A stretch of 64,000 nucleotides of DNA from Eledone cirrhosa (Eukaryota): the NCBI GenBank assembly GCA_964016885.1, contig OZ024742.1:313286001-313350000 (forward strand). Direction: 5' to 3'. Below the pieces are notes generated by a model, which searched no databases, was not told where the DNA came from, and worked only from the letters and a program-made list of their open reading frames with translations. The position numbers were made by a program, and so were the translations under genes. Below, piece by piece: positions 37,407-52,157 of this stretch. Within the stretch, counting starts at the first letter, position 1. Every line of letters starts with the position of its first letter.

Positions 37407-40323
37407 ATAAATTGAAACAAAATGAAAACGAAATTTCATTTCTCACTCTTAGTATGGCACTTACTTAAATGTAATTATGCATGTATACGTACATACATAT
37501 ATGTATACAGACGTACAGTAGCATGCACATATATATATATATATATACATATATATATACATATGCATACAGGTACACATACATATATGCACGTATCAGT
37601 TTAGCGGCGCTTATTATAACGTCGCTTTGTTCGTTTGTAAACAAACTGAACAGCCTGAATTTATGCCATACGGTGTTAAGGCAACCACGTCACCTTTTTG
37701 TTCAACACTAACACAGGAACGATGTACTAGTTTCAAGCTTGTTAGCTATCATCAGCACCGTTTACCCATCTGCCAGATAGTTGAACGTTCGAAAGTATGT
37801 ACTTTCCTTATGAAAATTAACGGCTGAGCAGCCTAATTTGCATATTGAGTGAGTTAAATCGGTCAGGCATACCGAAAACGATAAATTGAAACAAAATGAA
37901 AACGAAATTTCATTTCTCACTCTTAGTATGGCACTTACTTAAATGTAATTATGCATGTATACGTACATACATATATGTATACAGACGTACAGTAGCATGC
38001 ACATATATATATATATATATACATATATATATACATATGCATACAGGTACACATACATATATGCACGTATCAGTTTAGCGGCGCTTATTATAACGTCGCT
38101 TTGTTCGTTTGTAAACAAACTGAACAGCCTGAATTTATGCCATACGGTGTTAAGGCAACCACGTCACCTTTTTGTTCAACACTAACACAGGAACGATGTA
38201 CTAGTTTCAAGCTTGTTAGCTATCATCAGCACCGTTTACCCATCTGCCAGATAGTTGAACGTTCGAAAGTATGTACTTTCCTTATGAAAATTAACGGCTG
38301 AGCAGCCTAATTTGCATATTGAGTGAGTTAAATCGGTCAGGCATACCGAAAACGATAAATTGAAACAAAATGAAAACGAAATTTCATTTCTCACTCTTAG
38401 TATGGCACTTACTTAAATGTAATTATGCATGTATACGTACATACATATATGTATACAGACGTACAGTAGCATGCACATATATATATATATATATACATAT
38501 ATATATACATATGCATACAGGTACACATACATATATGCACGTATCAGTTTAGCGGCGCTTATTATAACGTCGCTTTGTTCGTTTGTAAACAAACTGAACA
38601 GCCTGAATTTATGCCATACGGTGTTAAGGCAACCACGTCACCTTTTTGTTCAACACTAACACAGGAACGATGTACTAGTTTCAAGCTTGTTAGCTATCAT
38701 CAGCACCGTTTACCCATCTGCCAGATAGTTGAACGTTCGAAAGTATGTACTTTCCTTATGAAAATTAACGGCTGAGCAGCCTAATTTGCATATTGAGTGA
38801 GTTAAATCGGTCAGGCATACCGAAAACGATAAATTGAAACAAAATGAAAACGAAATTTCATTTCTCACTCTTAGTATGGCACTTACTTAAATGTAATTAT
38901 GCATGTATACGTACATACATATATGTATACAGACGTACAGTAGCATGCACATATATATATATATATATACATATATATATACATATGCATACAGGTACAC
39001 ATACATATATGCACGTATCAGTTTAGCGGCGCTTATTATAACGTCGCTTTGTTCGTTTGTAAACAAACTGAACAGCCTGAATTTATGCCATACGGTGTTA
39101 AGGCAACCACGTCACCTTTTTGTTCAACACTAACACAGGAACGATGTACTAGTTTCAAGCTTGTTAGCTATCATCAGCACCGTTTACCCATCTGCCAGAT
39201 AGTTGAACGTTCGAAAGTATGTACTTTCCTTATGAAAATTAACGGCTGAGCAGCCTAATTTGCATATTGAGTGAGTTAAATCGGTCAGGCATACCGAAAA
39301 CGATAAATTGAAACAAAATGAAAACGAAATTTCATTTCTCACTCTTAGTATGGCACTTACTTAAATGTAATTATGCATGTATACGTACATACATATATGT
39401 ATACAGACGTACAGTAGCATGCACATATATATATATATATATACATATATATATACATATGCATACAGGTACACATACATATATGCACGTATCAGTTTAG
39501 CGGCGCTTATTATAACGTCGCTTTGTTCGTTTGTAAACAAACTGAACAGCCTGAATTTATGCCATACGGTGTTAAGGCAACCACGTCACCTTTTTGTTCA
39601 ACACTAACACAGGAACGATGTACTAGTTTCAAGCTTGTTAGCTATCATCAGCACCGTTTACCCATCTGCCAGATAGTTGAACGTTCGAAAGTATGTACTT
39701 TCCTTATGAAAATTAACGGCTGAGCAGCCTAATTTGCATATTGAGTGAGTTAAATCGGTCAGGCATACCGAAAACGATAAATTGAAACAAAATGAAAACG
39801 AAATTTCATTTCTCACTCTTAGTATGGCACTTACTTAAATGTAATTATGCATGTATACGTACATACATATATGTATACAGACGTACAGTAGCATGCACAT
39901 ATATATATATATATATACATATATATATACATATGCATACAGGTACACATACATATATGCACGTATCAGTTTAGCGGCGCTTATTATAACGTCGCTTTGT
40001 TCGTTTGTAAACAAACTGAACAGCCTGAATTTATGCCATACGGTGTTAAGGCAACCACGTCACCTTTTTGTTCAACACTAACACAGGAACGATGTACTAG
40101 TTTCAAGCTTGTTAGCTATCATCAGCACCGTTTACCCATCTGCCAGATAGTTGAACGTTCGAAAGTATGTACTTTCCTTATGAAAATTAACGGCTGAGCA
40201 GCCTAATTTGCATATTGAGTGAGTTAAATCGGTCAGGCATACCGAAAACGATAAATTGAAACAAAATGAAAACGAAATTTCATTTCTCACTCTTAGTATG
40301 GCACTTACTTAAATGTAATTATG
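37407..40323 (-). repeat. 474-bp tandem array (at least 6.15 units), one hammerhead ribozyme per unit; retrozyme-like
   Basis: Units start at 37407, 37881, 38355, 38829, 39303, 39777 and 40251. The ORF track repeats identical peptides every 474 bp. The array is cut by the N-gap. Confidence 0.95.
37718..37762 (-). ncRNA. type I hammerhead ribozyme of the 474-bp unit (also at 38192, 38666, 39140, 39614, 40088)
   Basis: aacggtg-CTGATGA-t-agc taacaa gct-t-GAAAC-ta-GTA/catcgtt; 7-bp stem I, palindromic ACTAGT stem III. Confidence 0.92.
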
Positions 40324-40523
40324 NNNNNNNNNNNNNNNNNNNNNNNNNNNNNNNNNNNNNNNNNNNNNNNNNNNNNNNNNNNNNNNNNNNNNNNNNNNNN
40401 NNNNNNNNNNNNNNNNNNNNNNNNNNNNNNNNNNNNNNNNNNNNNNNNNNNNNNNNNNNNNNNNNNNNNNNNNNNNNNNNNNNNNNNNNNNNNNNNNNNN
40501 NNNNNNNNNNNNNNNNNNNNNNN
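40324..40523. other. assembly gap (200 N)
   Basis: Run of N. Confidence 1.
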
Positions 40524-41089
40524 TTTTTTCTTCTTCTTCAAATCACATTATCTTCTCTTTCTTTTTCTTATTTCTTTCACTCATAACTATCCCATCTCTC
40601 TCTCCTCTCTTTCTCCCCCCTCTTTCTTGTACTAATCCTCCTCTCTCTCTCTCTCTCTTATACTAACCTCTCTCTCTTTCTCTTTACTTCTCTCTTATGA
40701 ATAAACAGAAAGTTCTTTCAATATGATACCATGTATGATTTTGGTGTATTTAACTCGGTTGACTTTGCATGTAGAATCTAAAAGTAGTGAATTCTAGTTG
40801 AAGTGGGTATACCTGGCCCGAACAGTCGACCATGTAGGTCAGAACAGCCTAGCCAGCTTGGATGTGAGTGAATTTCTTATATTTATAAGGGCTCAGTCTC
40901 CAGAAAACATTAAACAGATAGCCTTTCCTTTTAATCAAAAGCAGCAATTCAGATTTCAACATGTGAGCTAAAACAAGGAATTGGTACCTAAGTTAGCCTG
41001 ATAAGGTTAAAGGTCAGTGTGTGTTCATATGTGAATATTTGAAGAATCTCATTGAAGTTTTCCTTCATTCGTATAGATACTTCAGGACA

Positions 41090-50081: not shown

Positions 50082-50735
50082 ATGGTGGCTGCAAACTCTG
50101 CTAAGAGTATTGCAATCGCTTGTCAGATTACAGAAAATGGTGCATCTTTAGTCTATGGCCAGCCACACGAACCTGTAACAGATCCTGAACAAGCAATGTC
50201 TATGCTTTGAAGGTTTTTTTTAAAGTGGTGAAACGCCCTGCATTTGACCAATCCCACTCTCTAAGCATCGAAAACACTACCTGAAAAGGAGAACTGGCCA
50301 ACATCATCAAATGTTTCCGAAGCTGAAGGTTTTTTTTCAGGGGTTCCCTCTCCTAGAAAGGTGTTGTGGCAACAACTGGGGGCCTTTCACTCCCAACATG
50401 CTCATATACATGCATACATACATGGTGGCTGCCAACTCGTTTTCGCGTACGGCCACTACTTTATATCCATGTAGGAGAACCTCTACCGATGCGTTGAACG
50501 AGTGTGACTTTCTAGTCCGGCCAGCGACTTGAAAACTCTGGTACAAACACTACACTTGTGACAATTATTGACACATAGTGCTGGGCCCATGGTACCATGT
50601 GACGACAAGTGCAGAGAGATCTCCAGATATAAAGCAATGCCTGTGCCGTGAAGCTTTTATAGTGAGCAAAGGCACTGCACAAAGCCAGTCCCACTCTCTT
50701 AACCAAGATGATATTTACATACATACATACATACA
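50082..50735 (+). mobile_element. two different ~300-bp repeats in tandem, both starting atggtggctgcMaactc and ending in (acat)n
   Basis: Starts at 50082 and 50422. Confidence 0.6.
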
Positions 50736-51130
50736 TGAGTGTGTGTATATATACCCATTTCCCCCCTTCCTTTCTCTCTTTTATTAGCTTCCTTCTTTCT
50801 AGTTATCTGCTCGTTTGCTCTCACATTCAGTTTCCCACCTCTATCTCTAGCTCTCCATTTATATATATTTATTTGGTTCTTTCTCTCTATGTATATATAT
50901 TTATTTATATATATATATATATGGTAAATTTCTTTAAGTAGTTTGGAAGCCTCGACAATGCAGATGGGTAAATCTCCGGGTAACAAGATCCGGTGGTGGA
51001 GAGAGAGAGATGTAAGTGGGTGTACGTTGAGATGTGTGGCGTGTATAAGACCTTGAGTTACCTTGGGAGAGATTTAATATATATATATATAATATATGTT
51101 TGTATATATGTATATATATATATATATATA

Positions 51131-52157
51131 TGTGAATATAGACATAGAATATTCGAAAATATTCTGTATGTTTATAATAAACATTTTGAAGACCTAATCG
51201 CTATAGAATAGAATACGTCACGTATTACAATTAGATTCTCGATAAAAGCAAGGGAAGTAATCTACGCGTTTCATTCTTGTTAGAAATCTTCAGGACTACA
51301 TATCCAGTGCTTTTATCGAGAATGACACAGCTAGAGACTTATAGAATACTTAGCTGTGTACAGGAACTGGTTTGAAAGAGCGGTTGCCGGTCCGGCAGAA
51401 ATTAGAAATTGGAATCAATGCTCTGAAATAGCGATATATATGTGAATATAGACATAGAATATTCGAAAATATTCTGTATGTTTATAATAAACATTTTGAA
51501 GACCTAATCGCTATAGAATAGAATACGTCACGTATTACAATTAGATTCTCGATAAAAGCAAGGGAAGTAATCTACGCGTTTCATTCTTGTTAGAAATCTT
51601 CAGGACTACATATCCAGTGCTTTTATCGAGAATGACACAGCTAGAGACTTATAGAATACTTAGCTGTGTACAGGAACTGGTTTGAAAGAGCGGTTGCCGG
51701 TCCGGCAGAAATTAGAAATTGGAATCAATGCTCTGAAATAGCGATATATATGTGAATATAGACATAGAATATTCGAAAATATTCTGTATGTTTATAATAA
51801 ACATTTTGAAGACCTAATCGCTATAGAATAGAATACGTCACGCTAATTTCTAATTTCTGCCGGACCGGCAACCGCTCTTTCAAACCAGTTCCTGTACACA
51901 GCTAAGTATTCTATAAGTCTCTAGCTGTGTCATTCTCGATAAAAGCACTGGATATGTAGTCCTGAAGATTTCTAACAAGAATGAAACGCGTAGATTACTT
52001 CCCTTGCTTTTATCGAGAATCTAATTGTAATACGTGACGTATTCTATTCTATAGCGATTAGGTCTTCAAAATGTTTATTATAAACATACAGAATATTTTC
52101 GAATATTCTATGTCTATATTCACATATATATCGCTATTTCAGAGCATTGATTCCAAT
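51131..52157. repeat. 310-bp HHR-containing tandem repeat (2.3 units) plus one inverted, circularly permuted unit; retrozyme-like
   Basis: Units at 51131, 51441 and 51751 (partial, to 51842); the inverted copy at 51845-52157 spans the unit junction; (TA)n on both sides. Confidence 0.93.
51932..52020 (+). ncRNA. type I hammerhead ribozyme with extended stem I (minus-strand copies at 51257-51299 and 51567-51609)
   Basis: attctcgataaaagca-ctggatat-gtagtc-CTGAAGA-t-ttc taacaa gaa-t-GAAAC-gc-GTA/gattac-ttccct-tgcttttatcgagaat. Confidence 0.93.

Follow-up and report, generated by a model that had tools for sequence, protein, structure and literature searches.

Two hammerhead-bearing tandem repeat families of the octopus Eledone cirrhosa, probable non-LTR retrozymes inserted in the manner of Penelope-like elements

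Two short tandem arrays in the genome of the octopus Eledone cirrhosa, one of 474-bp units (family A) and one of 310-bp units (family B), are further retrozymes of an already known type, that without long terminal repeats (non-LTR), and the hammerhead ribozyme (HHR) that each unit carries is an ordinary one. Both lie in a 64,000-nucleotide stretch of contig OZ024742.1 (assembly GCA_964016885.1, positions 313,286,001 to 313,350,000), referred to here as the window. An original prediction, made from the letters of this stretch, held that the two families define a lineage-specific HHR subclass. The sequences, their covariation, their copy number and the geometry of their ends point, with good confidence, to a cycle in which multimeric transcripts cleave themselves as ribozyme dimers and circularise, and the enzyme of a Penelope-like element (PLE) copies them into TA repeats.

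Copy number and insertion anatomy

Genome-wide, the patterns of the set to which both arrays belong have about 36,000 matches. The motif first described in the window, with a U.U opposition at positions 10.1-11.1 at the base of helix II and the loop 2 sequence UAACAA, has 19,956 exact matches in this genome (G000) and none in a reversed control, which excludes chance. Longer exact patterns find 13,460 matches for A and 5,527 for B, jointly 95% of that number, and the first inner position of helix II is C or G in only 109 motif matches; the 100 of these that were listed are mostly one-letter variants of A or B, the majority from one long array. The motif thus comprises just two stem types. One further candidate, L038, which combines a GGA/UCC stem with the motif, proved a chance match lacking both GUH and stem I. 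A disjoint pattern of the same geometry in which 10.1 is not U yields a further 16,233 matches (29 in its control).

These additional matches include sister families. The C families (466-470 bp, G-C at 10.1-11.1), the D group (C.A or C-G) and the older, dispersed F group (A.A) are homologous to A beyond the ribozyme, at about 66-81% by BLAST and with masked profile matches to E 1e-30. Family B is not homologous to A, C, D or F outside the ribozyme; its own sister, with A10.1-U11.1, has 3,924 copies against the 5,527 with U.U, and a monomer 99.7% identical to that of B. Between the A and B monomers the sole BLAST match outside microsatellites is the HHR itself (37 nt, 76%, E 0.001), and B with its HHR masked finds nothing better than E 0.14 in profiles of A and its relatives, which bears out the original reading that the rest of the monomers is dissimilar.

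In the first 100 listed matches per family, 24 switches of orientation within 1 kb run from minus to plus and none from plus to minus, so the arms diverge with their 3' ends outward. Mapping of 21 B loci found 17 with two arms, every one of them (17/17) with an inverted, 5'-truncated arm; 16 of the 17 have one end at about 131-139 and the other at about 165 of the monomer, while the four one-armed loci all end at one of these two sites, and nearly all ends adjoin TA runs. The inner 5' junctions are scattered between positions 13 and 308 and the arms span several cleavage sites, which indicates a template that is a circle or an uncut multimer. In family A, where variation in TA length breaks the mapping, the ends cluster, untallied, around 259 and 318. 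In B the tail between the two sites measures about 26-32 nt, in A about 59 nt. An inverted 5' copy, a tail and a bias towards (TA)n are described as PLE traits (10.1101/2021.04.23.441226), and the tail of a PLE has been traced in vitro to two adjacent start sites of reverse transcription (PMC11167929).

The units themselves encode no evident protein. Each is a few hundred bases long, with GC below 50% and one type I HHR, and none of the 70 longest filtered frames of the window is a protein frame from the arrays; some A copies outside the window have antisense frames of 157-160 amino acids that run through the TA run. Fragments of GIY-YIG/HTH_animal-like (PLE-like) open reading frames (ORFs) exist in this genome, none of five being named by Pfam. 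PLE-like ORFs beside arrays were considered as partners and rejected, as they end at their own TA junctions and their adjacency reflects shared targeting.

The ribozyme and its covariation

A descriptor scan of both strands finds nine HHRs in the window, as originally described: six in the 474-bp array, all on the minus strand (the first at 37718-37762, the last at 40088-40132), and three in the 310-bp array, at 51257-51299 (-), 51567-51609 (-) and 51956-51998 (+). The family A motif reads CUGAUGA-U-AGC-UAACAA-GCU-U-GAAAC-UA-GUA and that of B reads CUGAAGA-U-UUC-UAACAA-GAA-U-GAAAC-GC-GUA. Stem I is paired in both, helix III is palindromic, and the predicted UGGRUA motif stands 5' of stem I as UGGGUA in A and UGGAUA in B. 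All nine copies keep the catalytic core intact (CUGANGA, GAAA, NUH and an open helix I). The Rfam scan of the whole window has no HHR among the best 150 of 242 rows, all of them microRNA-type noise from TA repeats. Folded as circles, the monomers are predicted to be more stable than 30 shuffles (z -8.4 for A, -4.5 for B) with the HHR helices left free.

The original prediction also claimed covarying stems. Within the window this amounts to a single comparison of two sequences, because the copies are clonal; the claim holds in an alignment of 22 subfamily representatives, hand-picked from 108 distinct contexts with truncated, chance and single-mutant rows excluded. Covariation was judged by pair counts against shuffled and slid controls. 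Pairing is found in 93.2% of cells. The alignment has a covariation score of 0.657; shuffles give 0.233 (the real score being reached in 0 of 500, a count that, to the detriment of the argument, is no probability, as the rows are related in about four lineages) and at most 0.141 when slid. Five of six helix I pairs and all three inner helix II pairs show two-sided changes, one of which, AUG/CAU to UUG/CAA in helix II, separates C monomers that are 96.8% identical. A covariance model built from the same rows and run on the window recovers, at E below 0.5, the nine known copies and nothing else. Outside the core, the sequence is invariant at U2.2-A1.2, U1.7, the loop-2 U, A and A, and the last loop-2 A, and the helix III hexamer is self-complementary in 22/22 rows with three different loops. 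Helix I of 6 bp and helix II of four positions are both present.

The covarying helices I and II, the invariant U1.7 and the invariant loop-2 letters fit the selection on a loop1-loop2 contact that the original prediction proposed, and in the Schistosoma and sTRSV structures U1.7 does contact the last A of loop 2 (PMC11875169). Judged by sequence, the design common to A and B is likely due to the general loop1-loop2 constraint of type I HHRs, whether or not the module has one common origin; the stem I core of B matches that of F, which would fit module exchange.

A separate subclass, defined by U.U, UAACAA, UGGRUA and a loop1-loop2 contact of its own, is a different matter, and we regard it as very unlikely. 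Loop 2 does read U-A-A-Y-R-A in 22/22 rows, G..UA upstream of stem I hardly varies, and neither the A nor the B motif reaches an Rfam gathering score; against Hammerhead_HH9 (RF02275) they have 19.0 and 16.5 bits where 52 are required, which places them outside that family. The rows were, however, selected by a 14-nt pattern of helix II and its loop, so the geometry was built into the alignment, and the proposed hallmarks vary within it: U.U and UGGRUA each occur in 8/22 rows, UAACAA occurs in 11/22, and 10.1-11.1 is unpaired in 15/22. The split of B between U.U and A-U, the G-C, C.A and A.A of the sisters, and the 16,233 matches of the same geometry without U10.1 tell the same way. Nor are the hallmarks restricted to the lineage. 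The UA bulge and U1.7 are also in the HH9 consensus, along with a six-base Y-A-A-N-N-A loop. In a metagenome scan, in which 80 of 116 stretches were compared and most pair poorly in the HHR register, four unrelated contigs from separate records (L282, L304, L310 and L318) have UAAYAA, 6/6 stem I pairs, 3/3 helix II pairs and U1.7. One of them, L282, combines U.U, UAAUAA, the ACGCGU palindrome and GUA and is otherwise unlike B. With its loop motifs unfixed and a nearly identical design in an unrelated contig, the subclass claim fails. In L282, (CCCTAA)n telomere-type repeats lie about 70 nt downstream of the HHR, as expected for a telomere-attached PLE end.

A retrozyme cycle and its rivals

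The favoured cycle would begin with read-through transcription of an array, in A possibly from an internal U6/MRP-type element. Two HHRs would then pair through their palindromic helix III and cut after GUA to release monomers of 474 or 310 nt, as the structure and the literature suggest. Self-cleavage is plausible, most likely by dimers rather than single motifs: a lone HHR, with a 2-bp helix III, a 2-nt loop and U.U at 10.1-11.1, should be weak, which would spare the monomer. By analogy with mussel, coral and axolotl retrozymes, a host ligase would circularise the product. The PLE enzyme would start reverse transcription at two fixed sites of the template, each used for one of the target strands, and these sites have left their footprint in the genome. 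It would copy several units in a row and so produce diverging arms whose units are identical. The six A units of the window are indeed mutually identical, as are the two full B units, and two letters that are rare in an independent public run (X1) are present in all six A units, which fits a single template.

Several points weigh against this cycle. Cleavage, the RNA and the circles are predicted or inferred. In a Xenopus test one of nine predicted retrozyme dimers cleaved (10.64898/2026.07.22.740005), and uncleaved RNA was the dominant template for an anole PLE (PMC11167929), so an uncut multimer could take the place of the circle. The A at 2.7 in the window copies of family A can pair with U1.7 and may compete with the tertiary contact. 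No A- or B-homologous pseudo-LTR (pLTR) of an autonomous PLE was found in ten PLE-like stretches that were read, a genome-wide search not having been made, and the PLE ends among them carry their own, different HHR-like motifs. The perfect identity of units beside an assembly gap could partly be polishing.

Could the arrays be satellites, terminal repeats detached from PLEs that unequal crossing-over has multiplied in place, with the HHR a passenger and an uncut multimer the template? Such an origin has been proposed for vertebrate retrozymes (10.64898/2026.07.22.740005), HHR cleavage is dispensable for the anole PLE in vitro (PMC11167929), and one 50-kb family A array (G000:C3:12272007-12323203), with about 85 listed variable units and G.U at helix II pair 2, differs from the short clonal arrays. 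Most arrays, however, are short, dispersed and internally identical, with fixed ends and inversions in one direction, and the catalytic core and its pairing are retained across monomers that are only about 66% identical. A satellite origin is thus improbable. An assembly artefact or chance similarity is less credible by far. In its favour, array A shows no differences between its units and runs into an N gap, but thousands of copies elsewhere have the same ends and the monomer is at very high depth in run X1. The uncertainty is confined to the number of copies at this locus.

A candidate promoter

In family A and its relatives an internal U6/MRP-type promoter is a lead from sequence comparison. 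Outside the ribozyme, no block of 12 nt is better conserved among A, C, D and F than the 12-mer TATGCAAATKAG (11/12 columns; background 45%). This 12-mer also stands at -77 to -79 of three types of U6 promoter in this genome, one of them with one mismatch, and, in an out-of-sample check, at -78 of RNase MRP. The U1, U2 and RNase P (1/1) promoters of this genome lack it, as do 60 kb of other window DNA and four dispersed U6-like copies with a 5' end, which look like retrocopies (ten others had no 5' end). Allowing one mismatch and including truncated copies, the 12-mer lies upstream of the HHR in 57/90 distinct A/D, 22/25 C and 6/12 F contexts and in 0/35 of B. If it works, the candidate would explain how the arrays are transcribed.

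Other features speak against a U6-type promoter. The TATA-like box lies 43-44 nt past the element in A, C and F (counted by hand) against 47-49 in U6/MRP, and in the window A copies it has one changed letter. T runs in the monomer could stop RNA polymerase III (Pol III) ahead of the next ribozyme. The core of the 12-mer is a common octamer, which we take to be a POU-factor site. A promoter of the RNA polymerase II (Pol II) small nuclear RNA (snRNA) kind was considered and set aside, a U1/U2-type matrix from 8 promoters being unconvincing in 11 monomers (p 0.04-0.83). The snRNA promoter grammar of this animal (L171-L173, L183-L211, L227 and L268), in which U1/U2 have TCART at -56 to -58 and a TATA-like box, U6 and MRP have the 12-mer, and RNase P has a U1/U2-type TCAGT with a longer spacer, is useful for building a native U6 promoter for it.

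A fuller history can be sketched, though we hold it to be doubtful as a whole: a superfamily of A, C, D and F would have captured an snRNA-type upstream promoter and retained it within every unit, would be mobilised by a Penelope enzyme that primes at two fixed sites, and would tune the strength of its ribozyme by repeated changes at 10.1-11.1 (G-C, A-U, U.U, C.A and A.A), while B, with its unrelated body, would have acquired this ribozyme by exchange of the module.

Features of the window

The coordinates of the arrays and their parts are collected in Table 1.

Table 1. Features of the two retrozyme arrays in the window (positions count from its first letter)
Feature	Position	Strand	Remarks
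Family A array	37407..40323	-	6.2 identical 474-bp units; 3' end of element at 37407 within (AT)n run; other end lost in N gap starting at 40324
(AT)n target microsatellite, 3' end of array A	37377..37409		
Family A type I HHR including loop-1 strands	37712..37768, then at 474-bp intervals up to 40082-40138	-	Predicted cleavage after GUA at 37725, 38199, 38673, 39147, 39621 and 40095
Candidate promoter 12-mer TATGCAAATTAG	37833..37844	-	89 nt upstream of core position C3; one per A unit; matches U6/RNase MRP element
(AT)n microsatellite left of array B	51077..51131		A second one at 52156-52275
Family B left arm	51124..51842	-	2.3 identical 310-bp units; ends at about monomer position 139 (near end site)
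Family B inverted right arm	51845..52157	+	About one unit; ends at about monomer position 165 (far end site, 'tail')
Family B type I HHR	51250..51306	-	Predicted cleavage after 51263
Family B type I HHR	51560..51616	-	Predicted cleavage after 51573
Family B type I HHR, inverted arm	51949..52005	+	Predicted cleavage after 51992
Extended helix I of B, predicted to close the ribozyme	51932..52020	+	16-bp perfect helix, 51932-51947 with 52005-52020; from sequence and fold

A frequent repeat end downstream of a PLE-like ORF (L132, about 6080-6150, minus strand) contains an HHR-like motif that reads CAGAAGA, with A at position 4, has U.U at 10.1-11.1 and may form a helix III of 4 bp; its predicted minimum free energy structure lacks the active fold. 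This type of end recurs at 49030-49140 of the window, as a short inverted insertion in TA, and in L007, L241, L252 and L264. A palindromic insertion at about 42248-42410 holds another HHR-like motif, at 42313-42359 (+), in which positions 3 and 8 are U and A where C and G are usual. Minimal HHR-like motifs of PLE type, whose helix II is long or plain, are found at 8795-8866 (-), 25383-25452 (-) and 14791-14826 (+), and a PLE-like fragment in L129 ends in a relative of the last. Further long perfect hairpins in TA runs, at 42094-42195, 53392-53496 and 56634-56733, are probably truncated inverted insertions of other PLE-type repeats and cause spurious microRNA matches. Reverse transcriptase fragments of the long interspersed nuclear element (LINE) type, with a PHD-like finger, lie at 60552-62099 (-; Pfam RVT_1, E 2.7e-32), 54605-55696 (-) and 10336-12240 (+). 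The 64-kb window has no tRNA gene.

Significance

Papers on animal retrozymes propose a PLE partner from co-occurrence and pLTR phylogeny (10.64898/2026.07.22.740005). Here thousands of young insertions bear the footprint of the PLE mechanism, and the value of the case is in this setting, not in the ribozyme. Two exact template positions per family can be named where reverse transcription should start, which allows a direct in vitro test. The series of 10.1-11.1 states in near-identical monomers, such as A-U against U.U in B at 99.7% identity, lends itself to asking how weak the ribozyme of a circular retroelement may become.

Comparison with known systems

By its sequence, the ribozyme of A and B is of the canonical metazoan type I design and no new subclass. 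Canonical metazoan HHRs have a helix I of 6 bp, a helix II of 4 bp, interacting loops and a helix III of 1-2 bp with a small palindromic loop, and work as dimers (PMC4209133). The octopus motifs share with these, with Schistosoma Sm-alpha and with HH9 the 6-bp helix I, the four positions of helix II, the 2-bp helix III with its short palindromic loop, U1.7 and the terminal loop-2 A; they differ in that loop 2 is UAAYRA and 10.1-11.1 is often unpaired. U10.1-U11.1 is a natural, tolerated mismatch (PMC3088659). It also marks the axolotl HHR_Amex2, again at the base of helix II; there the monomer was 22% cleaved in one hour and the dimer cleaved much better (PMC7229834).

As elements, the families resemble the metazoan non-LTR retrozymes described in PMC7229834: non-coding tandem units of a few hundred bases with one type I HHR and low GC, thousands of copies, and a self-paired circular fold with a free HHR, predicted in the octopus. 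They differ in that 10.1-11.1 varies among sisters, and in that circles, observed there, are inferred here, while the inverted two-site ends of PLE type are scored directly. Non-LTR retrozymes have neither primer-binding site nor polypurine tract, and any target site duplication exceeds 4 bp; the octopus insertions end inside TA runs, which would mask such a duplication. A literature search, judged by the titles and abstracts of the papers listed, found none on such repeats in octopus; it did not cover Repbase, Dfam or the supplement of PMC7229834, which may list these families. Internal promoters are known in other HHR tandem repeats, of the Pol II, snRNA type in newt satellite 2 and of the Pol III type in schistosome Sm-alpha (PMC2220036, PMC6765202), whereas the candidate here is a 12-mer of U6/RNase MRP promoters, in A, C, D and F and not in B. 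With PLEs and their pLTRs the families share the 5'-inverted insertion, the two-site tail, the (TA)n targets and the tandem units (10.1101/2021.04.23.441226, PMC11167929, 10.64898/2026.07.22.740005), and they differ from them in having no ORF, a full rather than a minimal HHR, and tails of the lengths given above.

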